Assembly (NCBI GenBank): GCA_020631075.1 | Contig: JAHDHX010000001.1 | Span: 11,283-75,282 of the forward strand | Direction: 5' to 3' | Source of the DNA: Candidatus Altimarinota bacterium | GTDB taxonomy: Bacteria; Patescibacteriota; Gracilibacteria; UBA4473 | Length of the DNA stretch: 64,000 bases | Part shown: positions 31,392 through 62,733 of the stretch, one piece after another | Layout of the letters: each line of letters opens with the position of its first letter | Numbering within the stretch: position 1 is the first letter of the stretch | Notes under the pieces: model-generated | Told to the model about the DNA's origin: nothing | The model's database searches: none | Seen by the model: the letters and a program-made list of their open reading frames with translations, nothing else | Made by a program: the position numbers and the translations under genes

Positions 31392-32063
31392 ATGACTGCC
31401 CTGACTGGAGGCCCACTGTGGGTGACGAACCTAAAAAACTATGAACTGACGACGGGGGAGGCGCTGCACAGACTAATGGCGGCGCATGACGCTGCGCAAG
31501 CCGAAACAGGGGCGGAAATAATGGTGGCGGGGTCGGTGCTGGACGTCGCGATGCTAGCGGCGCAATATGAAACGCCCGTGCTGTCGCAGCACGCTGACCC
31601 GCTGGGGTGGGGGAAGCACACTGGCCACGTGGTGCTGCCCAAGCTGGCGGCGGTGGGCGCGAGGGGGACGCTGCTCAACCACTCTGAACGGCGGATGAAC
31701 CCTGCGGTGATAGCGGAAACTGTCCGCCAAGCGGAAGCGGAAGGCTTGCTGACGATTGTCTGTGCGGAGAGCCCAGCGGAAGTCGAACAGTTGGCGGCAC
31801 TGAAGCCGTCGATGATCGCGTATGAGCCGCCAGAGCTGATCGGGTCGACGGGGGCGTCGGTGGCTTCGGCCAAGCCAGAGTCGATTGCGGAGTCGGTGCG
31901 GCTGGCAGGGGGGATCCCCCTGCTGGTGGGGGCGGGGGTGAGCCGTGTGGAGGACGTGGAAGTGTCGCTGGAGCTGGGGGCGAGGGGGTTCCTGGTCGCG
32001 ACGGCGGTGGTGAAGGCGACTGACCCGCTTGAAAAACTAAAAGAGTTTGTAGGGGCGTTTTAG
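31392..32063 (+). CDS. tpiA: Triosephosphate isomerase, archaeal type
   Basis: NLKNY, HTGHV, LLNHSE, YEPPELIG, GAGVS, GFLVATAVVKA; about 223 aa, the short archaeal form. Confidence 0.93.
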   Translation: MTALTGGPLWVTNLKNYELTTGEALHRLMAAHDAAQAETGAEIMVAGSVLDVAMLAAQYETPVLSQHADPLGWGKHTGHVVLPKLAAVGARGTLLNHSERRMNPAVIAETVRQAEAEGLLTIVCAESPAEVEQLAALKPSMIAYEPPELIGSTGASVASAKPESIAESVRLAGGIPLLVGAGVSRVEDVEVSLELGARGFLVATAVVKATDPLEKLKEFVGAF

Positions 32064-32253
32064 GGAGTGTTCACAAATTGGAAAAAGTAGATTGATTTTG
32101 AAGTATGAGGAGGGGTTTGAGTGAAAAAAGGATCTTTTTGGCTGCAAAATGGTTGCGTATTTTTGCCTTGATCCATCAAGGCTGCAAATACGCGCCCATT
32201 TTTCGCTCAAAAATCTCTCTTTTTTCTTCTCAAACCAATTTGTGGACACTCCC
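32063..32253. mobile_element. MITE-like rod-shaped element 1 (~191 bp) with TIRs and a probable TA target duplication, between the tpiA and holB stop codons
   Basis: TAGGGAGTGTTCACAAATTGG (32061-81) versus CCAATTTGTGGACACTCCCTA (32235-55) match 20/21 as an inverted repeat; internal long hairpin 32114-32236; AT-rich relative to flanking genes. Confidence 0.8.
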
Positions 32254-33002
32254 TAAGACTGTTTCTGGGCCCTTTTAAGCACGAATCGCTCCAGCGTTGC
32301 GCGCATATTGGCGTTGCGTTCGAGCCTTTGGTAGGTGTCGAGCGCGAGGTCGAGCCACTGGCGTTGACTGGGGGTGCGGCAGAGCTCGACGAGCTCGCGT
32401 GCATAGGTGCGTACAAGCCCTCGTCCGTCTTCGCTTTTCTTGGCGGCCTTGTGCAGGGCTTCGATCTGTCGAAATTGGCCCACGAGTGACGCTTCACCCA
32501 GCAAAGCGCGTGCGCTGCTGTCGGGGGCAACGGTGAAATCCAATGTGGGGAGGACTATGACCTGCACTCGGGAGAGGATAGTGTCGAGGAGCTGGTGGTG
32601 GTTGGCGGTGGTGAGGATGAACCGTACGCCTGCTGGGGGTTCTTCGAGGAGTTTGAGCAGGGCGTGGGGGGCTTCTCTGGTGGCGCGCTCTATGTGCTCG
32701 ATGATCACTATCCGCCACGGCGAATCGCCCCGCGACTGGTGGCACCAGCGCATGACCCCCCTGACGGATTCGTATTCGCCCTGGCCGTCGCGCACGGCGG
32801 CGTCGCTGTGGTCTATTTTCAGGGATTTGCCCTGGTCACGCAGGATGAGCGTGTCGAGGTTTCGTTCTATGGCTTGGGGGGGAACGTCTTGCAGCCCTGC
32901 GGCGAGCTCGAGCGCGAGGGTGAGCCCGTCACCACCACTCAGCAGTAGGCGCTGGGGTAAACGCCCAGTGGTCATCATGGCTCGTACCTGCGCTTCGGTC
33001 AT
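32253..33002 (-). CDS. holB: DNA polymerase III delta'-like clamp-loader subunit (short, divergent)
   Basis: RIVIIEHIERAT.EA.HALLKLLEEPP, FILT, LLDTILSR. Confidence 0.8.
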   Translation of the reverse strand: MTEAQVRAMMTTGRLPQRLLLSGGDGLTLALELAAGLQDVPPQAIERNLDTLILRDQGKSLKIDHSDAAVRDGQGEYESVRGVMRWCHQSRGDSPWRIVIIEHIERATREAPHALLKLLEEPPAGVRFILTTANHHQLLDTILSRVQVIVLPTLDFTVAPDSSARALLGEASLVGQFRQIEALHKAAKKSEDGRGLVRTYARELVELCRTPSQRQWLDLALDTYQRLERNANMRATLERFVLKRAQKQS

Positions 33003-34075
33003 GACTGCTTCTTTTTAGGTTTTTTGGGGGTACTTGCTTTCAGCAAGGGGTAGGTGATGGTGTCGTAGCTGGTGGGGGAGTGTTTGACCAGTCGCCAGCC
33101 TGTCTGGCCGTCGATGGCGCCTTCCCACTGGGCGTTGTCGGGGGCTTGGTCGATTTCTTTGATGGTGGGGCGGTCTTTGGCTTTGAGTTTTTCTAGCACG
33201 GCGTGGGCTTCGAGCAGGTAGTGCAGGCTGTCTGGGGTGTGTGGGTCACGCTGGCGCCGCCGTGTGAGCCACAGGAGGACGGAGAGCACCAGCACCACGG
33301 GCCCCCACAGGGGGCTGGCCCCCAGTACCCGCAGCCCGATGCCTTTGGCTCGGTCCCAGTTTTGTTGGAGTTGGGTTTGGGTGCCTCCCCGTGAGGCCTC
33401 ATTCAGCGGACGGACGGTGACTGACACTTGGGCGAGGCCTGTCAGTGACTGGTCGGTGCTGATCTCGGCTTGGAGGGCTTCGATCTCGGTCTGGACTTCG
33501 GTGATCTCTCTAAGGAGGGCTTTTTTATCGGCGACCTTGTCGGTCGCTTCCATGAGGGTTTCGAGCTGTTGCTGGTACCGACTGAGTGACTCGATGCGGT
33601 AGGACACGTCTGGCCGTGCGGGGAGGGTCTGTGGTCGGATGACTTGTTCTTGCTCGAGTTCGGCGACTTTGCCGAGGTTGAGCACGAGGTTGCCGATCTC
33701 GACTTCGGGCACGAGGGCCTCGAGGTGGACGGCTCGGCGTCGCTCATCGGTCAGTTTTGACTCTAGCGCGACGACCTCCCCCCCGAGGGTGCCGATTTCT
33801 TGCTCTATCAGTGGGCGGATCTCGCCCGGGGCGGTCGCGCGCAGGACTATCCGCGCTTGGGCTTTGCGGGTGTCTATGACTTTTGGGTCGTAGGCGAACT
33901 CACGGCGTTGCTTCTCGACCTCCTGAGTGGCGGACTGCCAGATCTGCGGGAAGGCGACTTCTTGCGTGCTGTCTGGCCACTCGTCCACCCAAAACCACCC
34001 AGCGACCCCCAGGCACGTCACCCCGAGCAAGATGCCGAGCCAGCGCCACCAGCCGATGCCTGTTTGCCGTGCCAT
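32999..34075 (-). CDS. DUF4349-like membrane protein
   Basis: N-terminal TM; ferredoxin-like core (LEALVP..LGKV), coiled coil 'LLREITEVQTEIEAL', AQVSVTV, C-terminal TM. Confidence 0.65.
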   Translation of the reverse strand: MARQTGIGWWRWLGILLGVTCLGVAGWFWVDEWPDSTQEVAFPQIWQSATQEVEKQRREFAYDPKVIDTRKAQARIVLRATAPGEIRPLIEQEIGTLGGEVVALESKLTDERRRAVHLEALVPEVEIGNLVLNLGKVAELEQEQVIRPQTLPARPDVSYRIESLSRYQQQLETLMEATDKVADKKALLREITEVQTEIEALQAEISTDQSLTGLAQVSVTVRPLNEASRGGTQTQLQQNWDRAKGIGLRVLGASPLWGPVVLVLSVLLWLTRRRQRDPHTPDSLHYLLEAHAVLEKLKAKDRPTIKEIDQAPDNAQWEGAIDGQTGWRLVKHSPTSYDTITYPLLKASTPKKPKKKQS

Positions 34076-34141
34076 GTGTGATGTGGGTTATTTTCACTCC
34101 TTACTCTACACATCTTGAACTTGTCCACCACTGACTAGCTG

Positions 34142-35506
34142 TCAGTTATACTTGCTGGGTCGGTTTATCTGTGGTCTCGCCACACAGAGGAAGGACGTCC
34201 AGTTGGCGGTGTTGTCTTGCAGGTTTTCTTCGACGATCTGTAGGCCGTGAAGCTGACACAGGAGGCCCGGGCCCAAGATGGCTACCGTCTGTGGCAGGCG
34301 CCCCTCGGCCAGGGCGCGTGCGCACTCGGCCGTGTCGATGAGCTCGCCCTCACCGCTCTGGAGCTCGTGCTCGGGGTACTTGATGGCTAAATTGTCCTGA
34401 CACTGCTTAAACACCTGTGGGTGGGCCATAATGGCAGTAATATCTTCCCAGGCGACGTCTGGTCGTTTCATCAAATGGTGGCGGATCATGACTTGGAACT
34501 GGTCGACGATCCGAAATTTATGGGCGGCCATGGCTTCGATTGATTCCTGCACCATGCCGCCGATGGAGTTTTGGATGGCGAAAATGCCGCGGTCGATATC
34601 ACCCCGGTGTAACTCTTGCAAGACTCGCTGGGTGGTGTAGAGGTACTGGGTGCTGTAGGCGGGGATAGACCGACTGGCGACGTACTCTTGCAGGGCCATT
34701 TGGTTGAAGGAGCCTTCGCCGCCCTGAATGCCGAAGATCAGCTGGCCGGCCTGTTTTTGCGGGGGGATGAGGGCTTGGAAGATTTGGTCGTAGGCTTCCC
34801 CAAACTCGACGCGCATTTGTCGTGTGTAAGGGTTGAAGTTTTGCAGGTTGGCAAACAGCTGCCATGAGTCGTGGCAGGTTTGCTCACGCACGGCGAGGAG
34901 CTGCTGGGCGCCGAGGGTGTCGATGGAGGAGGGTTGGATGTCGATTAAATCCAAGATCCTTCCGACGAGGTGCACGACGCCCTGCGACTTGGCGGCGAGG
35001 GCGTCGTGCTGGTCGCTGGTCATGACCTGCACGTCGAGCCCCCGCTGGGTGAAAATGTCGACCCATTCGGTGAGCTGGGCGTCGGTGGCGCGGTATTGGT
35101 CTATCACGAGTGGTAACCCTGTGAACCCTTCGGCGGCGCTGTCAGGGCCAAAGAGGGGGTGGGTGAGCATGATGTGGACGTCTGTGTCGGATAGCAGCTG
35201 GTCACAGATGTCTCTGGGGTGGCGTTTGACTGACAGGACGTCAACCAGCAGGTGGTCTGGCCGAAAGAACGGCTGATGGTTGCGGATAAACACCTCGAAA
35301 TGTTCGATCGGGAGGCAGAGGAATATCACTTTGGATTCGTAAATTTCTTCCAGTTGCTCGGTCCCGTGGTCGCCTTTGCGGAAGGGAAAATCGGCCCATT
35401 GGGTGACGAGAGGGTCAAAGACTCGCACGGAGAAATCGGCCCCGAGGAGCTGGTAGAGCACTTGCCCGAACCGTCCAAACCCGATAATGCTGATACGTTT
35501 TTTCAT
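34142..35506 (-). CDS. Fused prephenate dehydrogenase (TyrA-like) and prephenate dehydratase (PheA catalytic domain, no ACT)
   Basis: N-terminal half: IIGFGRFG, DVLSVK, HPLFGP, HD..AA.SQG..H. C-terminal half: QGGEGSF, QNSIGG, HPQVFKQC, QDNTANWTSF. Confidence 0.85.
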   Translation of the reverse strand: MKKRISIIGFGRFGQVLYQLLGADFSVRVFDPLVTQWADFPFRKGDHGTEQLEEIYESKVIFLCLPIEHFEVFIRNHQPFFRPDHLLVDVLSVKRHPRDICDQLLSDTDVHIMLTHPLFGPDSAAEGFTGLPLVIDQYRATDAQLTEWVDIFTQRGLDVQVMTSDQHDALAAKSQGVVHLVGRILDLIDIQPSSIDTLGAQQLLAVREQTCHDSWQLFANLQNFNPYTRQMRVEFGEAYDQIFQALIPPQKQAGQLIFGIQGGEGSFNQMALQEYVASRSIPAYSTQYLYTTQRVLQELHRGDIDRGIFAIQNSIGGMVQESIEAMAAHKFRIVDQFQVMIRHHLMKRPDVAWEDITAIMAHPQVFKQCQDNLAIKYPEHELQSGEGELIDTAECARALAEGRLPQTVAILGPGLLCQLHGLQIVEENLQDNTANWTSFLCVARPQINRPSKYN

Positions 35507-35518
35507 GAGGGGGGAGAT

Positions 35519-35881
35519 TTAGGATGAAGGGGGAAACTGGATGTCGCCGAGGTGGCTCTGGGCGACGGTTTCGCCGTGGTCGTGGATGTGCTGGTACATG
35601 ACGCGGATGAAGTTTGGGTCTATGCCGAGCTCTTGGCCTTTGGTCATGCGGTTGCGCATGAGCGCAGCCCAGCGCTTGCGGTCGAGAAAGGGGAGGTGGT
35701 GTTCTCGCTTGAGGGCGGAGATGTTTTTGACCACGCGGATGCGTTCGGCCATGAGGCTTAAGATGGCGTTGTCGAGGAGATTAACGCTGGCTCGGTATTC
35801 GCCCAGCTGCGCCAGCACGGTCGGGGGCATGGCCCCGTGGTGGTCGCTGTCGGATGCGGGTGGGTGGACGTTTTCTGGCAT
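35519..35881 (-). CDS. Chorismate mutase (AroQ, type II)
   Basis: LGEYR..V..LD..IL.LMAER......I..LK......D..RW pattern; directly upstream of the PDH-PDT fusion. Confidence 0.88.
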   Translation of the reverse strand: MPENVHPPASDSDHHGAMPPTVLAQLGEYRASVNLLDNAILSLMAERIRVVKNISALKREHHLPFLDRKRWAALMRNRMTKGQELGIDPNFIRVMYQHIHDHGETVAQSHLGDIQFPPSS

Positions 35882-35933
35882 TTTTAAGTGGTAAATAGTG
35901 TTGGTTTGCGGGCTAACTTCATGGCCCGAAACG

Positions 35934-35967
35934 AAAAAGCTCCTGACGATTGTCAGGAGCTTTTTTT
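35934..35967. terminator. Intrinsic terminator after the PPIase gene
   Basis: AAAAAGCTCCTGAC-gatt-GTCAGGAGCTTTTT perfect stem with A/T tails. Confidence 0.88.
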
Positions 35968-35985
35968 ATAAAATTCTTCTCTGAC

Positions 35986-36552
35986 TTATCGTTTCACTTC
36001 TTGAAACCCAGCGACATAGATGATGTGATAACCAAAGGGCGTTTCGACGAGCTCGGGCACGAGGGTTTCGGCGTCGGTGGCGAAGACAGCTTCGTCAAAT
36101 GGCTTGACCATGCGGCCAGCGGGGAAGACCCCGAGGTCACCACCGCGAACAGCGCTCGGGCCAGTGGAGAACTCTTTGGCTTTTTCTGCGAACATACCGA
36201 CGAGCTCGGCTGCGGGGGCGGCTTGCAGCTCGGCCAAGATTTCTTCGGCTTTGGCTTTGGCGGCGGCTTGGTCGGTGTAGGGCAGGTCAGGTTTGGCCAT
36301 GGTGGCGCCTTGGTAGCCGATCAAAATGTGTGAGGCGCGGGCCATTTTAATGGTGGGCTGTTTGACGACTTCTTCTTCGACTGGTTTTTCAGCTGGCTTT
36401 TCGGCTACCGCTGGGGCGGTGTTTTCTGCGGCTGGAGCTTGGGTCTCGACAGCTTTCTCAGGGGTGTATTCGGTTTTCTTTTTGCCGCCTGTGCAGGCAG
36501 AAACCGTCACCATCATTACCCCGAGGGAGAGGACTAGTAGAGCTTTTTTCAT
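35986..36552 (-). CDS. Parvulin-type peptidyl-prolyl isomerase lipoprotein
   Basis: Lipobox VSAC; ASHILI, AKEFS, GGDLG, MVKPFDEAVF, ETPFGYHII. Confidence 0.93.
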   Translation of the reverse strand: MKKALLVLSLGVMMVTVSACTGGKKKTEYTPEKAVETQAPAAENTAPAVAEKPAEKPVEEEVVKQPTIKMARASHILIGYQGATMAKPDLPYTDQAAAKAKAEEILAELQAAPAAELVGMFAEKAKEFSTGPSAVRGGDLGVFPAGRMVKPFDEAVFATDAETLVPELVETPFGYHIIYVAGFQEVKR

Positions 36553-36760
36553 GTGTTTGAAGGAGTTGAAAAAACAAATTTCAGCGTCACTGTATGTGCT
36601 GCACACGAGGGTGGCAAGCTTTTTCGGTGAGGGGCGGGGCGTTGCGGCGGATGGCTGAAGCATGATCTTTCGGGATAAAAATCAGTCATTCCCCACGACA
36701 AACTATCGAGACTTCCGTATTATCATCGACGATTTTGCTTTGTCGTTTTCCGTATTGCGT

Positions 36761-38548: not shown

Positions 38549-38640
38549 GGGGGTGATGGGGGGCATGGGCTGAGGGCTGTTGTTTATGATTTTGCTTATT
38601 TTGGGGTACTGTGGGGGTGGGCTGCTGGGGGGTGGGGAAA

Positions 38641-39850: not shown

Positions 39851-39875
39851 ATTCGCGTGGTGACGTGGGCGGGCT

Positions 39876-46809: not shown

Positions 46810-47016
46810 ATGACTATTCAAGAAATACGACAATTGACGTTGAAAAAGCTCTGGGTGAAAATCCGTGAGATGCGTCGCGAGCTGGCTGCGCTGCGATTCC
46901 ACGCGGCGACGGGACAGAACCAAGACACGGCCAAGGTGTCGAAAGCAAAAAAAACGATTGCGCGGATGCTGGCGGTGGCGCAGGAAAAGCAAGTTGTAAC
47001 TGATACTCAAGCATGA
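46810..47016 (+). CDS. rpmC: 50S ribosomal protein L29
   Basis: EIR, EL..LRF..ATGQ, KKTIAR; lies between rplP and rpsQ. Confidence 0.93.
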   Translation: MTIQEIRQLTLKKLWVKIREMRRELAALRFHAATGQNQDTAKVSKAKKTIARMLAVAQEKQVVTDTQA

Positions 47017-47258
47017 TTACGAAAAAAGGTGCGGTTGTGAAAATCTCTGGCCAGAAGACGGTCAAGGTGGAGGTGCATGAATATCGTGCGCATCCGAAAT
47101 ATAAAAAGCGGTACCGTGTGACTAAGCGTTTTCTGGTGCATGATGAAACGGAAAAAGCGAAGATGGGTGATACGGTGACGATTGCGCCGTGTAAGCCTGT
47201 GTCAAAACAGAAAGCCTGGGTGCTGGTGTCGGTTGATTCTTCAGAGCCAACTGAATAA
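47013..47258 (+). CDS. rpsQ: 30S ribosomal protein S17
   Basis: G.VV, KTV.V, HPKYKK, VHDE, GD.V.I..CKPVSK.K.W. Confidence 0.97.
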
Positions 47259-47626
47259 TGATCCAACATATGACCCGTTTGCGAGTGGCTGACAATACTG
47301 GAGCCAAGTATGTGATGTGCATCAAAGTGCTGGGGGGGTCAAAGCGACGGTATGCGCGTGTGGGGGACGTGATCATCTGTAGCGTGAAGCAGGCTTCGCC
47401 AAAGGGGGTGGTGAAAAAGAAGTCTGTGCAGCGAGCGGTGGTGGTGCGCCAAAAGTCAACGATCAAGCGTAAAGATGGTTCGGCGCTACGGTTTGATGAA
47501 AACGCGGTGGTGATCATTAACCCTGAGGGGCAGCCGAAGGGCACGCGGGTGTTTGGCCCGGTGGCGCGTGAGCTGCGGGGGCGGGGGTACCAAAAAATTG
47601 TTTCTCTTGCACCTGAAGTCGTATGA
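47258..47626 (+). CDS. rplN: 50S ribosomal protein L14
   Basis: [42 protein letters not shown]. Confidence 0.98.
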
Positions 47627-47967
47627 AGATCCTCGTAGGGGACACTGTCGTTGTCCGAACTGGTAAAGATAAAGGGAAAACTGGCAAAGTGCTAGCTTTC
47701 ACGAAAGATAAAAAACGTGTGCTGGTAGAAGGGGTGGGGGCGGTGATAAAGCACGTGAAGCCGCGACAAGGAGCGGAGGGGGGGCGCGTGGAAACATTTG
47801 CGCCGATAGATGTCTCGAACGTGGGGGTGTTGGACGAGAAGTCTGGGAAGGCTTCACGGGTGGGGTATAGCTTTGACAAAGCGGGGGTGAAGTCGCGGAT
47901 GCTGAAGAGTACGGGGGCGGTGCTGCCGAATAATTTCAGCCGATCAACTAAAGGTAAAACTGTCTAG
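47623..47967 (+). CDS. rplX: 50S ribosomal protein L24
   Basis: KOW motif [29 protein letters not shown]. Confidence 0.97.
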
Positions 47968-47969
47968 CC

Positions 47970-48542
47970 ATGATTACTGATTCACGATTGTATGACGCGT
48001 ATATGACTGAGGTTCGACCTCAGCTCATGAAAGACCTTGGCATTACGAATGCGATGGAGGTGCCGCGGGTAGAAAAAGTGGTGATTAACGTTGGTATGGG
48101 ATCATACTTACGGAAGCTCAATTCAAAGGATTACTCCTTTGTGCTCGATAACATTACCAATATTGCGGGGCAAAAGCCCGTGGTGCAAAAAGCGAAGCTG
48201 TCGGTGTCGAACTTTAAGCTCCGTGAAGGGCAGCCAGTCGGGGTGTCGGTGACGCTGCGCAAGAAGGCGGCGTATAACTTCCTCGATAAACTGATTAACA
48301 TTGTCTACCCGCGGGTGCGGGACTTCCGTGGGGTGCGCTCAGTGTGCTTTGATAAATTTGGAAACTGTAGTGTGGGATTTAAAGATCACACGGTGTTTCC
48401 TGAAGGGAAGTTGCCTGAAGATAGTCGGAAAATCCATGGTGTGCAGGTTACTATTGTGACCTCGGCCACAGACAAAGATGGAGCGAAGGCGCTGCTGGAT
48501 GCGTTTAGTTTCCCGTTCATTAAACCAGTAACTCAAGCTTAA
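47970..48542 (+). CDS. rplE: 50S ribosomal protein L5
   Basis: [36 protein letters not shown]. Confidence 0.98.
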
Positions 48543-48544
48543 AT

Positions 48545-48769
48545 ATGGTACGCAAAGCAATTGTTCACAAGTCGACGAAATTTATGGAGCGGGTGATCCG
48601 CGCGCGGAAGGAGGGCCGCAAGGTGGCGAAGTCCACGCGGGCGTATAATCGCTGTGCTTTATGTGGTCGTGCGCGGGGGTATATGCGTGATTTTGGAATT
48701 TGCCGGTGTTGTTTCCGTGAACTGGCGGAACAGGGAATGATCCCTGGTGTGCGTAAGTCTTCTTGGTAA
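48545..48769 (+). CDS. rpsN: 30S ribosomal protein S14, zinc-binding type
   Basis: [30 protein letters not shown]. Confidence 0.97.
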
Positions 48770-48784
48770 AAAATTGATTGAACT

Positions 48785-49159
48785 ATGACTGATCCTATTG
48801 CTGACTTTTTGACTCGGATGCGGAACGCCCAAATGGTGAACCGTGCAGAGATCTCTGTGCCATTTTCTAAGTTGAAACTGGCAATCGCTGAAACTATGAA
48901 AAAGAACCGCTTTGTGGCGGACGTCTCAACTGATAAATCCGGGAAATTTCCGAAACTGGTGGTAAAGTTTGCTGAGAAGAAACTCTCACTCAAGCGAGTG
49001 TCCAAGCCTGGGCAGCGGATTTACAAGAGTTCTGAGTCACTGCGAAAAGTGAAGAATGGGTTTGGATGTTTGATTGTTTCGACGCCTCTGGGGGTGATGA
49101 CGGGGTATGAAGCGCGAGCGAAAAATGTGGGAGGGGAAGTACTTTGTGAAGTGAGTTAA
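48785..49159 (+). CDS. rpsH: 30S ribosomal protein S8
   Basis: TDPIADFLTRMRNA, RVSKPG.RIY, IVST..GVMT, GGEV. Confidence 0.98.
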   Translation: MTDPIADFLTRMRNAQMVNRAEISVPFSKLKLAIAETMKKNRFVADVSTDKSGKFPKLVVKFAEKKLSLKRVSKPGQRIYKSSESLRKVKNGFGCLIVSTPLGVMTGYEARAKNVGGEVLCEVS

Positions 49160-49161
49160 TC

Positions 49162-49710
49162 ATGAGTCGTATAGGAAAAAAGCCGTTATCGATCCCTGCG
49201 GGGGTGACATTCCAGATAGATGGGAATGTGATCACTGTAAAAGGTCCGAAAGGGGAAATGTCGCAGGCGTTTGAGCCTGAGTATGTGTCTATTACCCAAG
49301 ATGATGGCACGGTGACGGTGAACCGTAACGACGACACCAAGCCCGCACGGTCGCGACACGGTTTGTATCGTTCATTGATTCAAAATTTATTTGTGGGGGT
49401 GACGGATGGGTTTGCGAAGACTTTGGAGATCCGTGGGGTGGGGTACCGCGCGGCGTTGCAAGGGACAACTTTGGTATTGAATCTTGGGTATTCGCACCCG
49501 ATTAATTATGAGTTGCCACAAGGAATCGAAGTGAAGTTTAATGAGAAGGAAAATAATGTGTTTACGGTGAGTGGAATCGACAAACAACAAGTGGGGCAAG
49601 TGGCAGCGGAGATTCGTTCGTTCCGCAAGCCTGAACCATATAAAGGGAAGGGAATTCGCTACCAAGATGAATATGTGGCGCGTAAAGCTGGTAAATCTGT
49701 GAAAGCATGA
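49162..49710 (+). CDS. rplF: 50S ribosomal protein L6
   Basis: [39 protein letters not shown]. Confidence 0.98.
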
Positions 49711-50939: not shown

Positions 50940-50953
50940 CCCACAACCCAACC

Positions 50954-51744: not shown

Positions 51745-52716
51745 ATGGAAAATATATCGGATCGGTTGCGTCAGGTGGGATTTTCGAAAGACAAGTCACA
51801 AGATAGAGATCTGAAAACTCTGGGAAAAATAGTAGAGAATATTAAGGCCACGGACATAACCTGTAAGGACATAGAGCTGGTGAGGGCGAGAAATTCGGAA
51901 TTAGTTGATGGACTGATAACTCAGTCTGGAAAAGATCAGTATTACTATTTTGGTATGATTGATCGGATACTGCGGTATACTGGGCAACCGTCTTTGATGG
52001 ATTGGCTGAGAACGTCAGAGTATAAAAAATTGCGGAAACTGAATACCCCTTTGGCTGAATTTTTTGAGGAGCGTTTTGGTCAGGCTGTTGAAAACATTTT
52101 AGGTGAAAAGATTGAATCAATGGAAGATGCAGACGAGCTTGAAATTTTGCGCTTGATGCAGATTGAAGCGTTTGATCGGTTGGGGGAAAACACAGTTGAG
52201 CCGAGTGAGACGGTACTGGGGTATATATTAGAACGGCTGGAACTAGGAGACACGAAGGTGAACTGGCAGAAATTTATTGAGTATCGGATCACAAAAAGTA
52301 ATAGCATTACACCAGCGGTGGTGAACTTCATAGCGCAGGCGTCGCCAGTGGGAGTGGGTGACGCGCTGGCTAATAAAATAACAGATACTTTTTTACCATA
52401 TTTTGCTCAACAAGCTTTAGAAGAGGGGAAGTTTAATAGTCGTTCAAACTTTGTGTTGTACGTTGTGCCAAAGACAACTGCGAGTCTTGCTCTATTAAAC
52501 AAGGCGCCAGTCATACGGGATATGATTGAGGGTGGATACAGTTTTGCTGCGACGAATCTGTTTGATGAATCTGATTTTAATACGGAAATGAGTGAAAAAC
52601 AAAAAAATAGATTTGTAAAAACTCTTAAGAAATCTAGGAAATTTGAACAGATGTTGAATGATAAGACGGTGCTAGCGAGTGCGATCAAAAAATTCTGTGC
52701 CTTGAGTCGTTCTTAG
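51745..52716 (+). CDS. Hypothetical protein, AT-rich
   Basis: 323-aa ORF with ordinary globular composition and lower GC than the flanks; no family recognised. Confidence 0.7.
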   Translation: MENISDRLRQVGFSKDKSQDRDLKTLGKIVENIKATDITCKDIELVRARNSELVDGLITQSGKDQYYYFGMIDRILRYTGQPSLMDWLRTSEYKKLRKLNTPLAEFFEERFGQAVENILGEKIESMEDADELEILRLMQIEAFDRLGENTVEPSETVLGYILERLELGDTKVNWQKFIEYRITKSNSITPAVVNFIAQASPVGVGDALANKITDTFLPYFAQQALEEGKFNSRSNFVLYVVPKTTASLALLNKAPVIRDMIEGGYSFAATNLFDESDFNTEMSEKQKNRFVKTLKKSRKFEQMLNDKTVLASAIKKFCALSRS

Positions 52717-52717
52717 T

Positions 52718-55056: not shown

Positions 55057-55620
55057 ATGACGGAAAATGTAGAAACGGTGGCGGGACGGAACCTGGAACA
55101 AGATGGGGCGCTGATAGAACAGATGATGGCGGAAGAGGCGCTGCGAGAGGAGATCCGTGAGGAGCTGAAAAATGTGCTGGGGGCGCGGGCGCGGGTGGAA
55201 CTGTTTGCGGAGATGATGGACAAATATGGACTGGACGCGGTGCTGGGAATGGTGCCTTTGCCCGTGGCGCCAGAGGCGGCGACGGCCGTGGCGCAGAGTG
55301 TGTACCTCCTTGCGGAGGCGGGCAATGCGGGGCTGTCGAAGATGGATATGTTGAAAATAGTGGGGCTGGAGACGGCAGATTTCTTTGTGGGGGTGGCGGG
55401 GATGAAAACGGGGGTATTGGATTACCTCTTTAAGGCGAATAAGCAGGCGGCGAAGTACTTTGCCCGGCAAGAAGAAGCGGTGGTGGCCCGAGCCAAAGAA
55501 CTGGGGCTGACCGAAGAGCAGATAGCGGAAATCCGCCAAGAGGCGTCGATCTTCCCGCGGATAGGGAAAAAGGTATTGTCGCTTGACTCATTGGGCAAAA
55601 GCAAAGAAAAGAGTGTTTAA
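55057..55620 (+). CDS. DUF4112-like protein
   Basis: MDKYGLDAVLGMVP, YLL.EA..AGL, D.FVG, LDYLFKAN pattern. Confidence 0.65.
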   Translation: MTENVETVAGRNLEQDGALIEQMMAEEALREEIREELKNVLGARARVELFAEMMDKYGLDAVLGMVPLPVAPEAATAVAQSVYLLAEAGNAGLSKMDMLKIVGLETADFFVGVAGMKTGVLDYLFKANKQAAKYFARQEEAVVARAKELGLTEEQIAEIRQEASIFPRIGKKVLSLDSLGKSKEKSV

Positions 55621-55694
55621 GTGGGGGGAAGTGTTACTTTTTGCTGCGGGGAACGATAGCGCAAGTGAGTGGGGGGGAATTTCAACCAAAGTGT

Positions 55695-57641
55695 ATGATG
55701 ACAAACATAGGTAAACGGGGACGGAACTGGCTGCTGGGGGGACTGCTGTGGGCGTGCCTGTGTGGGGGGGCGGTCGTGCAAGCGCAGGCCGAAGCTGGTA
55801 CCGACAATGAAACTGTGCAGACGGAAACTGCGCCAGTGGAAACGGCCGCGGAAGCAGAGCGAGTAGAAAAAGAAGAAGCCACAGACCCACCAGCGGGGGT
55901 GATGAACGCGGCCACGCGGGTGGAATTTGCCGAGGGGGAGTATGCGGTGGGGGACCAAGCGCAGCTGCAAATGGAGGTGCAAACGGGGGGGGGAGCCGAA
56001 GCGCTGACCGGGGTGGCGGTGCAGCTGTCGCTGCCAGAGTCGCTGCAGTATGTGGGGGACACGGGGGCGGCGCTGGTGGGGGAGGGGTACTATAACGCGA
56101 CGACCAACACCTGGACGGTGCCGACCCTGGGCCCAGACGAGCAGGCGGAACTGACGGTAGACCTGTCGGTGGTGGGGGGAGAAGAGACGGCCGTCGGGTA
56201 CACCTGGACGGTGGCTGACCCCGAGCAGGTGAACTGGGCGGTGGCAGACGACCTGCAGGGGGAGGTGGAGTTTACTCCGCAGGTGACGACGGTGCGGACG
56301 GTGATGGGGTTCACGCAGTCGGAAATGATGCCGGGGGAAACGGTTAAGCTGCAAATAGAGGCGGGGAGTGCGGAAACGCTGGTGGGGGAGTATTTTTATC
56401 AAATAGGGGCGGAAGAGGCGTCGGTGCTGGTGTACACGAACCATACGGGTGATGGGAGCTATGACCCGTTGACTGGAAAATGGACGGTGGACTATGAAGC
56501 GCTGGACGAAGGGACGGCGGTGCTGGAAATAGAAATGATGTTGCCGCAGGACACCAGCAGTGCGGGGACTGACCGCTGGACTGTCAGCTGGGCGGATGAA
56601 ACGACGGTGAAAGGAGCGGCGCTGGTGGGGGAGGGGGCGCTGGTGGGGTATGGGCCGCGGATGCTGGGGCTGGATGGGATGTCGGTGGGGCTGGAGACCC
56701 AGCCAGAGACGGCCCAGCCCGGGGAGTATGTGCAGTATCTGCTGACGCTCGACAACCAGCAACGCACGGCCGTGGAGGGGGTGCGGGTGGTGAATCTGGT
56801 AAATAGTCCTGAACTGCTGTATGTGTATGACTCAGTCGCGGTGGCGGGGGTAGCGCAAACCGACCGCGTGGACCGTGACCAGGTGGCGCTCGACCATAAA
56901 CAGGGGGTGGCGCTGGAAATAGACACAATCGCTGAAGGGGAGCGGGTGGTGGTGGAGTTTTTCACGCAGGTGCGGCCAGACACAGACGCGGAGGTGGTGC
57001 TGAACCAATTTGCGGTGACGGACGGGGAGGGGCAGCAGGTGCTGGTGGAGCATGCGCTCCCGCTGGTGCAACAAGCAGCGATGGCGTGTGAAATGATGGC
57101 ACTGGAGCCTGAACTGGGGCTGGATGTGGGGCTGATAGACACGCCGAAAAGCTCGCCGTGGCGGGCGGGAGTGGAAGCGCTGTATGCCCGTGGGGTGATG
57201 ACCGGGCAGGGGGAAGTGGGGCGGATGGCGATAGACCAGAAGGTGAACCGTGCGGAGATGGCCAAGATGCTGCTGCTGGCGGTGGGGGAGCCGCTGAAGG
57301 TGGGGTGTCTGACGGGAGAGTTTGATGATGTGGCGGCGGGGGCGTGGTATGAGCCGTATGTGTTGAACCTTGTGGATCGGGGTGTGGTGCGGGGGTATGA
57401 CAATGGGGACTTCGGCCCTGCGGATGACGTGCGACTGGGGGAAGCGGCCAAGATGGTGGCGTTGAGCTTTGGGCTGGAGGTAGACACCAAAAAAGGGGTG
57501 CTGGGCCACTGGGCGGGGCCGTATGTGACGGCGCTGCAAGAAGCGGGCTGGCTGGGGGAAATGGTGCTGGGGGATGGGAACTTGGAACGACAGCTGACCC
57601 GTGGGGAAGTGGCGGCGCTGCTGGGGGCGGCGGTGCAGTAG
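55695..57641 (+). CDS. Secreted surface protein with DUF11-like beta domains and C-terminal S-layer homology (SLH) domains
   Basis: Signal peptide; YN..T.TWTV..L and YDP.TGKWTV (DUF11-like); AQPGEYVQYLLT; SLH motifs VNRAEMAKML, FDDV...WY..YV, GY.NG.F.P, LTRGEVA. Confidence 0.85.
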   Translation: MMTNIGKRGRNWLLGGLLWACLCGGAVVQAQAEAGTDNETVQTETAPVETAAEAERVEKEEATDPPAGVMNAATRVEFAEGEYAVGDQAQLQMEVQTGGGAEALTGVAVQLSLPESLQYVGDTGAALVGEGYYNATTNTWTVPTLGPDEQAELTVDLSVVGGEETAVGYTWTVADPEQVNWAVADDLQGEVEFTPQVTTVRTVMGFTQSEMMPGETVKLQIEAGSAETLVGEYFYQIGAEEASVLVYTNHTGDGSYDPLTGKWTVDYEALDEGTAVLEIEMMLPQDTSSAGTDRWTVSWADETTVKGAALVGEGALVGYGPRMLGLDGMSVGLETQPETAQPGEYVQYLLTLDNQQRTAVEGVRVVNLVNSPELLYVYDSVAVAGVAQTDRVDRDQVALDHKQGVALEIDTIAEGERVVVEFFTQVRPDTDAEVVLNQFAVTDGEGQQVLVEHALPLVQQAAMACEMMALEPELGLDVGLIDTPKSSPWRAGVEALYARGVMTGQGEVGRMAIDQKVNRAEMAKMLLLAVGEPLKVGCLTGEFDDVAAGAWYEPYVLNLVDRGVVRGYDNGDFGPADDVRLGEAAKMVALSFGLEVDTKKGVLGHWAGPYVTALQEAGWLGEMVLGDGNLERQLTRGEVAALLGAAVQ

Positions 57642-57663
57642 GGGGGTGGGTTCCGTTTTTAAT

Positions 57664-58575
57664 CTAAGGTTGTTTTGGTTGGGGGGATTGCTGAAGCTGG
57701 CGGCAGTGCTGCGCTATGTGGGCGTAGGTTTTTTGGGCTTGCTGGAACAGTGACTGGCGCACAGACACCAAATGTAATGAAGACTGAGGCCCGAAGTGAG
57801 CGGTGGGTGGGTGCTGACGGATGAGCTGCTGCACCAGACAGGTGGGGGAGTCCGGCTGGGGGGAGTGGCACTGTGACAAGAGGTCCTGCAGATGCTGGGG
57901 GTCGATGAAGCTGTGGATGGCGGAGACGAGGAGGGACTTCTGGCTAATGAAGTGGTGGAACTGGCTGAGCTGAGATTCGGTGTGGTGGAGTTGCTGGGTG
58001 AGGGATTCGAGCTGGGGCCAGTCAGTGGTGGGACTGAGCTGGGTGAGCTGTCGGTGCAGCTGGGTGAAGCGGAGGTGGAGCTGACTGGCTGGCTGAGTAC
58101 CGAGCAAGTGCTGCCGATAGGGCTGCAGAAAGGGGGCGAGGATGCGGCGGGTGAGCTGGAGCGAAAGAGTGGCCCAGAAGAGCTCGCTGAAGGGCTGACC
58201 CGTGGCCCGAGCGTGCAGGGCTATGGCCTGCGGAAAGAGGAGGGTGGTGGTGCTGTGCGGCACGAAGGCGCCGAGTAGTAGCTGGGTGGAGGAGGCGGGG
58301 AGGGCCCGTGGGGCGACATAAAATGAGACGCTGTGGGCGCGCACTTGCAGGCCAAGTTGGCGGAAATGAGTGATGAGCCGTGGCGGGATGGGGAGGCGGA
58401 AGCGACGGAGGCTGAGGGTGCGGATGAGGGGGCGCTTGGACGGGGACTGGGCGAGGCGGTCAAGCAGGAGGTCAAGCGCGCAGTGGTGGGCACCGTGGAG
58501 GGAGTATTTTGAAAAATCTGGCTTGGGGGCCAGCGTGGACTCAATGGTGAGGTCGGTGAGGGAGAGGTGCTGCAT
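57664..58575 (-). CDS. Hypothetical protein with a coiled-coil segment
   Basis: 303-aa ORF filling the gap between neighbours; strongly L/Q/H/S/P-biased, as expected for this C-rich strand. Confidence 0.55.
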   Translation of the reverse strand: MQHLSLTDLTIESTLAPKPDFSKYSLHGAHHCALDLLLDRLAQSPSKRPLIRTLSLRRFRLPIPPRLITHFRQLGLQVRAHSVSFYVAPRALPASSTQLLLGAFVPHSTTTLLFPQAIALHARATGQPFSELFWATLSLQLTRRILAPFLQPYRQHLLGTQPASQLHLRFTQLHRQLTQLSPTTDWPQLESLTQQLHHTESQLSQFHHFISQKSLLVSAIHSFIDPQHLQDLLSQCHSPQPDSPTCLVQQLIRQHPPTAHFGPQSSLHLVSVRQSLFQQAQKTYAHIAQHCRQLQQSPQPKQP

Positions 58576-58633
58576 CGGCCGTAGGGATACGGCAGATGGT
58601 TTTATTTGTCAATTTTATATTGTATTTTATTAT

Positions 58634-59386
58634 CTATTTTTCAGATGAAGAGAGTTGGGTGAATTTGGCTAAAAATGTCTCGACGCAGGGGGAGACGTCG
58701 TGCTCGTCAGACAGGGACTGGGTGTCGTAGGTGTCGTAGAGGCGGAGGCGGTAGAGGAGCTCGGCGAGGTTGAGCTCTGGGTGGAACTGGAACCCCCAGA
58801 CGCGCGGGGCGTAGCGACAGGCCGTGATGGGGCAGCGGTCGGAGGCGCTGAGAACAGTGGCGGAGTCGGGGACGGAAATGACGGAGCCCTGATGCCCGAC
58901 GACGGCTAGAAATTCGTCGGGGAAGTGGCCGATGAGGGGGTCGGTGCTGGCGGCGGGGGTGAGGTATTGCGGGAGGACGCCGCACTCGCCGTAGGCGGGG
59001 TCGGCGGTGACTTGGCCGCCGTAGAGGTCGGCCAAGAGCTGGTGCCCGAAGCAGCTGCCGAGCACGAAGACACCGCGGTCGATGGCGCTGGTGATCAGTG
59101 GTTTGACCTTTGCGATGGTGTCGTCGACCCACTGACGGACTGGGCCCTGGGACTCGTACCCTGCCTCACCCCAGCCACCGATGATGAGGTGGGTGGCTTT
59201 GGCGAAAAAGGGAGCGAGGTCTGACTGGGTGACTGCGGGGTGAGCGCAGTTGAGCGCGATGATCTGGCCAAACGGAATGGCGGCGAGGCGCTGCATGCAC
59301 GCGAGCTCATGCGGGCCAGAGACGTCGGTGCGAAATTGCAGGATGACCACGAAGCGTTCAAAGGTGGGGAGGGTGCTGGTGGCCAT
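58634..59386 (-). CDS. Class I glutamine amidotransferase (stand-alone)
   Basis: IIGG, LGSCFGHQLLA..YGG (nucleophile Cys), HQ, GFQFHPE (His-x-Glu). Confidence 0.9.
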   Translation of the reverse strand: MATSTLPTFERFVVILQFRTDVSGPHELACMQRLAAIPFGQIIALNCAHPAVTQSDLAPFFAKATHLIIGGWGEAGYESQGPVRQWVDDTIAKVKPLITSAIDRGVFVLGSCFGHQLLADLYGGQVTADPAYGECGVLPQYLTPAASTDPLIGHFPDEFLAVVGHQGSVISVPDSATVLSASDRCPITACRYAPRVWGFQFHPELNLAELLYRLRLYDTYDTQSLSDEHDVSPCVETFLAKFTQLSSSEK

Positions 59387-59501
59387 AAAAAAAAGGTGAT
59401 GGTGTTGGGGTTCGACCTATTATAACAGGCAATTGCTTGGCGAGGGGGGAAAAAATCTTACATTGGGGGTGAAATCCTTACAATGTAATAGTTTGCACAC
59501 G

Positions 59502-59804
59502 ATGGCACAGGTGAAAGTGACGGATCACGCGGGGGAGATGGCGGGGGAGTTTGCGTCGAACGCGGAGGAGTCGGTGGGGGTACAGGCGCAAGATGCGGGG
59601 GTGCCGGTGATGTTTGGCTGTGGGTCGGGGGCGTGTGGGACCTGTCGCGCGACGGTGACGAAGGGGATGGAGCACCTGGACGCCGAGGCGATCGATGAAG
59701 CGCAGATAGAAACGGCAGAAAACGAGGTGCTGACGTGCCTGTGCGCGGTGAAGCCAGAGGCGCCTGCAGACGCGGAGATAGAACTGGCGCTGGAAAATCT
59801 GTAG
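59502..59804 (+). CDS. 2Fe-2S ferredoxin
   Basis: FGCGSGACGTC...LTC (Cx4Cx2C...C); acidic, about 100 aa. Confidence 0.9.
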   Translation: MAQVKVTDHAGEMAGEFASNAEESVGVQAQDAGVPVMFGCGSGACGTCRATVTKGMEHLDAEAIDEAQIETAENEVLTCLCAVKPEAPADAEIELALENL

Positions 59805-59837
59805 GGTGGTTGGCATTGCCTGTAAAACTGTGTGCGT

Positions 59838-60884
59838 ATGACTGGGCCAGAACTGGTGCTGGGGATAGAAACGTCGTGTGATGACACGGCGGCGGCCGTG
59901 GTGCGCGGGGGGACGGAGGTGCTGAGCCAAGTGAAGCACAGCCAGGGCCAGCACGCGACCTATGGCGGGGTGGTGCCAGAGCTGGCGGCGCGGTTGCACG
60001 CGGAGATGCTGCCCCGAGTGGTAGACCGTGCCCTGGCGGAAGCGGGGGTGACGTGGGGGGAAATAGACGCGGTGGCGGTGACGCAGGGGCCTGGGTTGCA
60101 GCCGTGCTTGCTGGTGGGAACGACCTATGGGAGTGTGATGGCGCAGCTGAAGGGAATACCGCTGGTGCCGGTGCATCACATCCATGGGCATATAGCTAGT
60201 GTGCGGCTCAACCAGCGGGGTGACTGGCCGTTGCCCGCGCTGTGCCTGACGGTGGCGGGGGGGCACACGCAGTTGCACCTCGTGCGGAGGTGGCTGGACG
60301 TGGTGCGACTGGGGCAGTCGCGGGATGATGCGCTGGGGGAGGTGTATGATAAGACGGCGAAGTACCTCGGGCTGGGGTACCCTGGGGGGCCTATCATCAG
60401 CCAGTTGGCTGACCAAGGTGATGGGGGGCGGTTTGCGTTGCCGCGGCCGTACCTTGGGAAGGGATCGTTGGAGTTTTCGTTTTCGGGCCTGAAGGCGGCG
60501 GTCAAGCGGCACTGTGAGCAGGCGGAGGTGATAGACGATGCGTTTCGTCGTGACATGGCGGCGTCGTTTCAGCGGACGGTGGAGGCGGTGCTGATAAAAA
60601 AGCTGGGCTGGGCACTGGCGGCGCACCCTGCGGTGCGGTCGATGTTTTTTGCGGGGGGGGTGTCGGCCAATCGGCAGCTGCGCGCACTGCTGGGGGGGTG
60701 GGCGGCGGAGCGGGGACTGGAACTGGGGGTGCCGAGTGAGATAGCGCTGAGCACAGACAATGCGGCCATGATAGCGGCGTCGGGGTGGCTGTGGGCGGTG
60801 GAGCGGGGACTGGCGCGGGCCCCGCGCCATGTGGAACCCAAGGGGCGGTGGGAGATGGGGGAGTGGCTGGGGGGAAATAGCTAG
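59838..60884 (+). CDS. tsaD: tRNA N6-adenosine threonylcarbamoyltransferase
   Basis: LGIETSCDDT, YGGVVPELAAR.H, GPGL, HHIHGH, GGHT, DDALGE.YDK, FSFSGLK, GGVSAN, TDNAAMI. Confidence 0.97.
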   Translation: MTGPELVLGIETSCDDTAAAVVRGGTEVLSQVKHSQGQHATYGGVVPELAARLHAEMLPRVVDRALAEAGVTWGEIDAVAVTQGPGLQPCLLVGTTYGSVMAQLKGIPLVPVHHIHGHIASVRLNQRGDWPLPALCLTVAGGHTQLHLVRRWLDVVRLGQSRDDALGEVYDKTAKYLGLGYPGGPIISQLADQGDGGRFALPRPYLGKGSLEFSFSGLKAAVKRHCEQAEVIDDAFRRDMAASFQRTVEAVLIKKLGWALAAHPAVRSMFFAGGVSANRQLRALLGGWAAERGLELGVPSEIALSTDNAAMIAASGWLWAVERGLARAPRHVEPKGRWEMGEWLGGNS

Positions 60885-61072
60885 GCAGTCTTGATATAAC
60901 GGTGTTAGAAAAGTGATAGATTGAAAGAAGAAATCTCGAACAAAAATGAATCTTTTTCGCGAGGGTACGCTTGAGAACTGCAAAAGGTACGAAGGTACCT
61001 TTTGCAAACCTCGCACTCCCCTCACATGAAATCTCCTATTTTTGTTTCGAGACCGTTTATGTCGACACTACC
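60884..61072. mobile_element. MITE-like rod-shaped element 2 (~189 bp) between the stop codons of tsaD and the Cys-rich gene
   Basis: CTAGGCAGTCTTGATATAACGGT (60881-903) and ACCGTTTATGTCGACACTACCTAG (61052-75) form an imperfect inverted repeat; inner TCTCGAACAAAAAT/ATTTTTGTTTCGAGA; perfect apical stem TGCAAAAGGTAC-gaag-GTACCTTTTGCA (60979-61006). Confidence 0.75.
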
Positions 61073-62733
61073 TAGTCTACCACTTCGTTGTTGTAGACGT
61101 CTTCGGAGACGATTTGCTCGGGGCGGTCGGGGTGGTAGGGGGTGCGAAGGGGGACGCCTGAAACGGAGCAGGGGCGGTCGTGTAACTCCCGCGGGAGACG
61201 AAGAGCGAGACGGTCAGCGTGGCGGGCCCAGAAGGATTTGCGGGGGAGGGGGAGGGCCATGTCGCGGTAGAACTTGAGTTCTGATTTTTGCAGTTTGAAG
61301 TTGCGGCCCGTGTCGGGGCACTGGAGCATTTGCTGGGTGATGTCGGCGGGGATGTCGCTGGCGCTGTCAGGGAGGGCGATGGTCTGGGGGATGGTTTCTT
61401 TGGGGTTGGTGTCTTGCCATTTGTAGCCTCGGGCGAGCGCCTGGCTGCGGGTGAGGGGGAGATAGTCTTGGGCGTGGGAGTGGTTGTAGTAGAAGGGGGA
61501 ATCTTTAATCGGGAAAAATTCGCCCCACTCACCCGTGGAGCGCATATGCTCGATGATTTTTTTGGTCAGGTCTTGGTATTCGGCTTCGGAGTATTGCTGG
61601 TTGAGGATGCGGAATTTGGCTTTATTGACCCCGACGCACCCGAAGAGGTGCTCGGAGGACTGGCAGTAGAAGCAGTAGCGGAGGAATTTGTTGTTGTTGA
61701 GGCAGTGGGTGATGGCGATGTTGTCATAACAAACGTAGCCGCTGGTGGCGCACTCGTAGAGGAGTTCGGCGCCGTCGCCGACTTCGGTGCAGTCGATGCA
61801 GGTTTTGGCGTCGTCAAAGGCTTGGGTGACGTAGGCACAACCCCACAGGCGTGAGGAGTCGAAGCATTCGTGGGAGTCTTTGGAATGGGTGAGGTAGTTG
61901 CCGGTGACGTTTTCGTTTTGGATGCCTTCCATAAACCGATGGGGGAAGCGCTGCACAAACTGCTGAAAGTGGGCCCGCAGGGGCGACAGGCCAGAGTAGG
62001 TGTCGAGCCGAAGGGCGGCGAGCTTGGCTTGGTACTCCTCTTTGGTGCATTTTTCGTTCATGAAGTAGTACTGCTTGTTGCGGAGATTAACGCAGCCGAA
62101 GCAGTCGTGGCAGCCGATGCAGTTTTTAAGGAAGGCGGAAGAGGAGCAGTTGTGGCAGTTTTGTAGAAATTTGCTGTCGTAGCAGCTGACGCAGTCGATG
62201 CACTCGTAGCAGAGCTCGCACGAGCGGAGGCGGAAGCAGTCGCAGCAGTTTTGGCAGGAATTAATGGAATAGCTGTAGTAGCAGTCCCAGTTTTTGTCGG
62301 AGTCGAAGACGAAGTAGCAATTTTTATTCTTCCCAGCGTAGTTGGTGTAGTCGCTGTTTTCGTCGTATTGCGGGGTGCGTTGCAGGTTGGGCCGAGGGGC
62401 GACTTGTAGGAGGTCGTGGAACTGGTCGAAGAAGGGGCGGTGGAAGTCGTAGTCACGGCCAGTGGCGAGCTGGTCCCATTGGTCGGTATTCCAGAGGTGG
62501 ATGTCCATCACGGGGTGGGCGAACTCGGGTGGGTAGTGGCTGAGGATGGGTTTACCCGAGTGGCAGCAGGTGGTGCGATAGAACTCTAACTGGTTTGACC
62601 AGGCCATGCGCCGACGGGCGCGTTCGTCGGGGTGGAGGGTGGGGGTGGGGACGTCGAATTTTTGGTAAAATTCTAGATCGGCTTCGCGGACAGTGAAGGA
62701 GCGGCCAGAGACGGGGCAGGTTTTGGTTTGCAT
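61072..62733 (-). CDS. CPR-type Cys-rich repeat protein (Zn-ribbon-like ends, central CxxC/CxxS repeats); function unknown
   Basis: Two blocks of short Cys repeats (..SCQNCCDC..SCELCYECIDCVSCYDS..NCIGCHDCFGCVNL; ..SSEHLFGCVG), WDQLATGRDYDFHRPFF.QF, GEWGEFFP, YN.S.AQ.Y.P. Confidence 0.85.
   Translation of the reverse strand: MQTKTCPVSGRSFTVREADLEFYQKFDVPTPTLHPDERARRRMAWSNQLEFYRTTCCHSGKPILSHYPPEFAHPVMDIHLWNTDQWDQLATGRDYDFHRPFFDQFHDLLQVAPRPNLQRTPQYDENSDYTNYAGKNKNCYFVFDSDKNWDCYYSYSINSCQNCCDCFRLRSCELCYECIDCVSCYDSKFLQNCHNCSSSAFLKNCIGCHDCFGCVNLRNKQYYFMNEKCTKEEYQAKLAALRLDTYSGLSPLRAHFQQFVQRFPHRFMEGIQNENVTGNYLTHSKDSHECFDSSRLWGCAYVTQAFDDAKTCIDCTEVGDGAELLYECATSGYVCYDNIAITHCLNNNKFLRYCFYCQSSEHLFGCVGVNKAKFRILNQQYSEAEYQDLTKKIIEHMRSTGEWGEFFPIKDSPFYYNHSHAQDYLPLTRSQALARGYKWQDTNPKETIPQTIALPDSASDIPADITQQMLQCPDTGRNFKLQKSELKFYRDMALPLPRKSFWARHADRLALRLPRELHDRPCSVSGVPLRTPYHPDRPEQIVSEDVYNNEVVD

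Follow-up and report, generated by a model that had tools for sequence, protein, structure and literature searches.

Stop-codon spacers in a Candidatus Altimarinota genome as probable miniature transposable elements with IS427-type ends

What kind of DNA can occupy the shared stop codon of two facing genes and leave both proteins intact? The question is raised by a 64,000-nucleotide stretch from a Candidatus Altimarinota bacterium (GenBank assembly GCA_020631075.1, contig JAHDHX010000001.1, positions 11,283 to 75,282), referred to here as the window. It contains two AT-rich spacers between convergent genes, copy A (32061-32255, 195 bp) and copy B (60882-61074, 193 bp), both of them hairpins bounded by TAGG and CCTA. 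Each starts with the TAG stop of the left-hand gene and ends with the CTA of the opposing one (TAG 32061-32063 and CTA 32253-32255 in copy A; TAG 60882-60884 and CTA 61072-61074 in copy B). Very probably the two spacers represent one family of miniature inverted-repeat transposable element (MITE), whose parent was a small IS5-family insertion sequence (IS) of IS427-group architecture and which rebuilds TAG stop codons when it inserts at TA.

A hairpin family with the ends of an IS5-type element

The initial annotation of the window had postulated, from these two spacers, a diverged non-autonomous family with TA ends, and the genome as a whole bears this out. In the source genome (1.46 Mb in 50 contigs, 57% G+C, 95.9% complete), copy number was determined with nhmmer profiles and end-motif scans. 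The profiles recovered 35 separate loci, made up of 31 full-length copies (at least 185 bp) and four fragments (62-114 bp); a strict regular expression for the end motifs found 21 copies. None of the full-length copies, which measure 190-196 bp, carries a transposase gene. Two subfamilies are distinguishable, A with 21 copies of about 195 bp and B with 10 of about 193 bp, and mean identities are 91.8% within A, 88.7% within B, and 50.5% between the two; copies of subfamily A are 84-97% identical to one another. Together the loci occupy 6,371 bp, or 0.44% of the genome, in addition to three weak partial matches. Contigs from the Logan collection for three sequencing runs of one sample, possibly the source of this DNA, give a summed depth over the element 30 to 50 times that of the flanks. 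Loose contig ends in these runs stop exactly at 32061 and 32255, identifying these positions as repeat boundaries.

Outside the window, four shortened subfamily A copies of 62-114 bp were located (C3:80275-80388, C5:5872-5938, C22:112251-112362, and C49:53489-53550); because two of the four retain both ends, they appear to be internal-deletion derivatives. Two 22-bp palindromes, at C3:133720-133741 and C40:28429-28450, consist of the two outer end repeats fused at a common central palindrome, and a third, more degenerate one lies at C7:100931-100952; a control search of the reversed genome returned none. These palindromes seem to be what remained of copies after the sequence between the repeats was lost, and the one at C40:28429-28450 gives the TAG stop of a 310-aa open reading frame (ORF). 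The same genome also contains a second modular repeat family that is unrelated to the MITE.

The ends of the copies and the sites in which they lie are those of an element that targets TA. The 21 bases at either terminus of copy A pair with each other, as do alignment columns 2-16 and 186-200 in most of the 31 full-length copies. Intact TAGG and CCTA ends, with TA on both sides, are present in 22 of the 31. When the element and one TA are removed from these, the inferred target is YTAR in 17 of 22 (TTAG 9, CTAG 4, CTAA 3, and TTAA 1), an enrichment over the 21% share of YTAR among tolerated TA sites (P = 3e-8). The flanking base next to the element was scored at 52 ends, with C in 31 cases, T in 16, G in 4, and A in 1. 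For the window copies the same operation yields TTAA between tpiA and holB (copy A) and CTAG at tsaD (copy B), as the initial annotation had it.

The identity of the ends points to a parent. A scan of metagenomes with a 20-nt end motif yielded 68 loci, six of which are elements of 844-854 bp that are bounded by the MITE end repeats, have TA at both ends, and lie without exception in YTAR sites. The 15-18 outermost bases of the MITE are identical to the ends of these six IS5-type elements. Two of the six, L139 and L167, were scanned for domains, and each has two overlapping ORFs corresponding to DUF4096 and to DDE_Tnp_1/DDE_Tnp_1_2; the L139 ORFs align end to end on the NCBIfam model transpos_IS5_3 (positions 5-113 and 112-257 of 258). 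The trap-plasmid study PMC3281130 characterizes IS427-group members as 832-865 bp in length, bounded by inverted repeats of 12-21 bp, flanked with one exception by a 2-bp direct repeat, and containing a frameshift motif along with two overlapping ORFs. The elements of about 850 bp resemble the group in size, end repeats, TA at both ends, two overlapping ORFs, and a DDE transposase.

An IS5-family element of about 824 bp on a plasmid of Paracoccus alcaliphilus is bounded by perfect repeats of 17 nt and has TA at either end, and its ends differ from those of the MITE at 1 of the first 15 positions. The suggestion of an IS5-family, IS427-group parent in the initial annotation is thus well supported by the shared ends and encoded proteins of the metagenomic elements and by the nearly identical Paracoccus ends. 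In a comparison based on PLSDB annotations, plasmid-borne transposases come no closer than 38-46% identity to the metagenomic one, and all 2,286 matching records fall below 60%.

Within the phylum, the genome G133 carries the end motif at 17 contig ends of two types (9 and 8). This is the pattern of a multicopy element, present in at least 8 copies, that breaks the assembly at every copy. Its interior is not in the G133 contigs; it is intact in the metagenome contig L139, where an 848-bp element (locus positions 6427-7274) has exactly the two end types of G133.

Across genomes the end motif is patchily distributed. Among other genomes sampled, it was present in 6 of 400 from the phylum and in 5 of 200 from the class, and none of 23 from the same family had it. 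A BLAST search with copy A returned no matches in 40 relatives. When one genome per species was searched for the two end motifs at a spacing of 150-180 bp, 8 loci turned up in 7 metagenome-assembled genomes from several phyla (two unclassified bacteria, a Yonathbacteria, a Saccharibacteria, two Dehalococcoidia, and a Poribacteria). Each of these loci is a hairpin of 180-192 bp with a different interior, and nine further pairs, 139-176 bp long, are present among the metagenome loci. Unpaired end motifs were considered as possible full IS copies; the five that were fetched, from five of the 7 genomes, all proved to be MITE-sized pairs of 154-197 bp. In G530, a genome of the same class, end-motif pairs stand 57, 240, and 245 bp apart (C2:4064-4120, C2:334533-334772, and C3:70690-70934) and probably represent further MITE size classes.

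Stop codons supplied by the elements

To count stop codons supplied by the family, in-frame TAG codons of ORFs of at least 100 aa were considered. Element ends act as the TAG stop of a gene at 17 of 62 ends (9 genomic-left and 8 genomic-right), on 15 of the 31 full-length copies. Pfam domains are present in 13 of the 17 ORFs stopped in this way, including SmpB, ClpB, a photolyase, a sugar transferase, and a PemK-like toxin, and the SmpB, PemK, Bac_transf, and Zip ORFs reach the ends of their profiles. The proposal that the terminal G regenerates a TAG and leaves proteins intact therefore extends from the window to the family. In 29 relatives of the same family, TpiA ends at the same aligned residue in 17, at +1 residue in 9, at +2 in 1, and at +3 in 2. 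The gene for the PemK/MazF-like toxin (116 aa, C49:73615-73965) takes its stop from a degenerate subfamily B copy near a contig end.

Insertion at the shared stop of convergent genes, which had been put forward as a trait of the family, does not generalize in the same way. Stops are supplied at both ends by 2 of the 31 copies, and these two are the window copies, making shared convergent stops a special case and not the rule for the family. The frequency of single stops was compared with a null model of random insertion into tolerated TA sites, built on crude codon-model ORF picks (1,059 genes, 82.6% coding). The expected share of insertions at stop codons is 6.7% for any tolerated TA and 14% for YTAR sites only, and the 15 observed among 31 copies exceed both (P = 2.6e-10 and 5e-6, respectively). 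Since YTAR reads TAA or TAG on both strands, target preference together with purifying selection in a dense genome suffices for the pattern.

In both window copies we recovered the features described initially, namely the quoted end repeats, a purine-rich segment with two shared motifs, and stems that are unlike in sequence yet complementary. Each is predicted to form one long hairpin, closed by the end repeats and with the mostly unpaired purine-rich stretch on its 5' arm. The fold energies are -87.6 kcal/mol (z -10.3) for copy A and -64.8 kcal/mol (z -6.1) for copy B, and none of 200 shuffles was as good.

Copy A (32061-32255 with the TA at each end included, plus strand) is a subfamily A element in the top-scoring class of nhmmer matches. 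Its left terminal inverted repeat (32061-32081), of which the first three bases are the tpiA stop, pairs in the fold as positions 1-21 with 175-195. Next comes the purine-rich segment (approximately 32082-32106), which is the most variable block within subfamily A as measured by diversity per 10 columns. A long, imperfect inner hairpin with a conserved internal loop follows (approximately 32107-32229), and then the right terminal inverted repeat (32235-32255), whose final CTA is the TAG stop of the minus-strand holB-like gene. Copy B (60882-61074 on the plus strand, again with both TA included) belongs to subfamily B. Its left terminal inverted repeat (60882-60902) begins with the tsaD stop, and its right one (61054-61074) ends in the CTA that stops a minus-strand ORF of 553 aa.

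The genes concerned are tpiA (31329-32063, plus strand, 244 aa, Pfam TIM) and a DNA polymerase III delta'-like (holB-like) gene (32253-33002, minus strand, 249 aa, Pfam DNA_pol3_delta2) at copy A, and tsaD (59832-60884, plus strand, 350 aa, Pfam TsaD) at copy B. The 553-aa ORF opposite tsaD (61072-62733, minus strand), noted as Cys-rich in the initial annotation, has no Pfam or NCBIfam family match. Elsewhere in the window, three stretches (approximately 19000-23200, 47000-49200, and 52000-52200) have a G+C content of 41-50%, compared with 57% for the genome.

Hairpin conservation and competing explanations

RNAalifold predicts 48 pairs from the 31 copies, 20 of them with changes on both sides. 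In a structure of 57 pairs, ends included, pairing holds in 94.6% of cells, compared with 83.8% in column shuffles (reached by 0 of 500) and 43-55% when partners are slid by 1-3 columns. The covariation is essentially a single split between subfamilies A and B, from which nearly all double changes derive. Because A and B are only about 50% identical, the chief message of this split is that one hairpin geometry underlies both subfamilies. Within each subfamily, paired columns vary 2.4 to 4.2 times less than unpaired ones (diversity 0.039 vs. 0.167 in A, P = 2e-9; 0.076 vs. 0.182 in B, P = 6e-4). In the stems of subfamily A, 41 of 63 variant cells preserve the pair.

Such conservation would also be expected if the host had domesticated the elements, as bidirectional terminators, RNA 3'-end stabilizers, or RNase III processing sites, so that the hairpin came under host-level selection after insertion, a view that we consider unlikely. 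The hairpins are very stable, and 11 of 30 classifiable copies lie between convergent genes, an arrangement found in 17.3% of gene pairs (P = 0.009). Yet tandem gaps hold 16 copies and divergent gaps 3 (the latter not significantly few, P = 0.22; one copy was unclassifiable), and the two arms supply stops about equally often (9 vs. 8). Around both window copies, there are no sites resembling an intrinsic terminator (a G+C-rich stem followed directly by a T run) on either strand. The initial suggestion of a terminator or processing site consequently finds nothing here to sustain it, with 19 of 30 copies in tandem or divergent gaps, arms that are alike, and no stem with a T run.

Single-copy variants differ between the subfamilies. 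In A they are rarer in stems (15 in 130 paired columns vs. 26 in 65 unpaired columns, P = 1e-5), which favors selection on the resident copies, whereas in B they are as frequent in stems as in loops (35 in 124 stem columns vs. 18 in 69 loop columns, P = 0.87), and most of those in stems (27 of 35) disrupt a pair, as in neutral decay after insertion. In our view, the constraint falls chiefly on lineages that propagate, and copies decay more or less neutrally once inserted; in subfamily A some constraint may persist beyond that point. At the Rfam gathering score there are no matches in the window, and with E values up to 1 the two elements gave only two sub-threshold matches (26.9 and 23.8 bits, where the respective cut-offs are 90 and 54.3). 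In the absence of a terminator signature or an Rfam match, domestication is unsupported. A broader version of the idea is comparably doubtful. It holds that the host keeps the hairpins as RNA 3'-end modules, insulators or stabilizers between abutting and especially convergent genes in the very compact genome of a candidate phylum, with the stop-rebuilding ends serving as an entry ticket for a domesticated class common to several phyla.

Other mobile systems could in principle have moved the elements. The genome contains one DDE_3/transpos_IS630 gene, its only IS630-family transposase gene (C7:60952-61788, 278 aa), situated in a stretch of low G+C content (37-42% vs. 57%). The IS630 family duplicates TA and prefers CTAG, so that the TA ends and CTAG-like targets of the MITE would fit. 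However, the flanks of this gene show no similarity to the MITE ends or to the whole element (best local alignment scores 16-28), the IS630 copy of G133 is bounded by a different end repeat, and it is the IS5-type elements that carry the MITE ends exactly. Mobilization by a resident IS630 transposase is thus highly improbable, and the resident gene was rejected as the parent for its unrelated ends.

We give even less credence to REPIN-like doublets moved by a RAYT tyrosine transposase, or to a family of structured non-coding RNA genes. Either would account for long hairpins that lie outside genes, with an enrichment at gene ends and in convergent gaps. Against REPINs, the genome has no match to Y1_Tnp (PF01797). 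A GTAG head is the signature of REP sequences, and it is lacking here, with G outside TAG at only 4 of 52 ends. The identity of the ends with those of the IS5-type elements speaks against both, and the missing Rfam matches against an RNA gene. A search for promoter-like sites gave none in copy A and a single weak one on the minus strand of copy B (9 of 12 positions matched).

Several results weigh against a MITE derived from an IS427-type parent. holB adjoins tpiA in none of the 29 family relatives, and synteny at tpiA revealed no empty site. A joint across the element was not seen in the contigs of the three runs, and neither these contigs nor the 29 relatives revealed an insertion polymorphism. 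Recent movement is not in evidence, with copies of subfamily A 84-97% identical and no matching transposase in the assembly. Because no empty or polymorphic site was found, we only infer TA duplication and mobility for these copies. The two measures of covariation that are robust to relatedness are not significant, with 23 double-change pairs against 21.0 in shuffles (reached by 40 of 500) and 45 pair types against 48.4 (reached by 496 of 500). The crude gene calls inflate the count of tolerated sites; at an expectation of 21%, which allows for missed genes, the excess at stop codons has P = 6e-4.

The parent itself is also missing from the source genome, where DDE_Tnp_1 and DDE_Tnp_1_2 have no match and tblastn with four IS ORFs found nothing (best E value 0.39). 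There is no transposase homologue in or near the MITE copies. No contig end of the source genome carries the repeat, and from this and the tblastn result the copies look orphaned. A multicopy IS of about 850 bp may nevertheless have escaped assembly in this organism, since it would be shorter than the smallest contig (1,012 bp). Identity between the MITE and the elements of about 850 bp ends after 15-18 bases, so that descent from that exact IS is no more than possible.

Insertion model and relation to known elements

As we picture it, the parent of the MITE would be an IS5-family element of about 850 bp with IS427-group architecture, whose DDE transposase would recognize ends beginning TAGGNAGTGTTNACA. 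The transposase would insert the MITE at the TA of a YTAR site and presumably duplicate the TA. Because the base after the TA, the first of the element, is a G on both strands, each junction reads TAG into the element. An element that inserted into a stop codon at its TA, or at the TA common to two overlapping convergent stops, would then rebuild TAG and leave the proteins unchanged. In a dense genome, insertions would tend to survive at such stops and at the 3' ends of genes generally, which may be why about half of the copies touch a stop codon. The full-length hairpin would be retained mainly in propagating lineages, where it probably helps a very short element to join its ends or to be mobilized. 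Because the assembled genome has no matching transposase, the present copies would be orphans, either decaying or relying on a transposase supplied in trans.

Among described elements, the closest are those of the IS427 group, such as IS1248, ISPpa2, and ISPaes1 of Paracoccus (PMC3281130), and MITEs derived from them. The metagenomic elements of about 850 bp that bear the MITE ends agree with this group in size, in end repeats of about 20 nt, in a 2-bp flanking repeat, and in two overlapping transposase frames. The window elements differ in having no transposase and a hairpin over their whole length, and only 15-18 of their end bases are common to the metagenomic IS. Correia (or NEMIS) elements of Neisseria, ERIC of enterobacteria, and RUP of pneumococcus are likewise short, multicopy, TA-bounded, end-to-end stem-loops that sit in transcribed intergenic regions (PMC2229807, in its section on these elements), but their end sequences and parent families are different. 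The same section links RUP to IS630-Spn1 and documents RNase III processing and IHF sites for Correia elements.

Overlap with the 3' ends of genes has a precedent in QMITE1 and QMITE2 of Coxiella burnetii, copies of which overlap functional genes by 1-3 bp or more with little change in protein size (PMC5896051, passages on the two families). Those overlaps vary and sometimes alter the C-terminus, whereas in the window family the overlap is exactly the stop codon, as a result of the target TA and the first element base G. REP and REPIN sequences with their RAYT are likewise extragenic hairpins, often between convergent genes; the window genome, however, has no Y1 transposase, and the element ends match a DDE-type IS.

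Literature searches returned nothing relevant on MITEs in this bacterial group and no description of an IS427-derived hairpin MITE, with candidates judged mostly by their description; one MITE reported in PMC11578231 is linked, in the part that describes it, to IS1182. The spacers belong to a new MITE family of a well-known kind, one that works like the other TA-duplicating hairpin MITEs (Correia, ERIC, and RUP).

The two odd AT-rich spacers are therefore explained as ordinary mobile DNA with an IS5-family parent of IS427-group type. Annotators should note that overlap with a stop codon is seen in about half of the copies, and should record none of them as a gene or an RNA. The rule that emerges is that a TA-duplicating, YTAR-targeting element with G as its first base can occupy a stop codon harmlessly, even one shared by facing genes. 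Occupancy of stop codons is one way for such elements to persist in very gene-dense small genomes.

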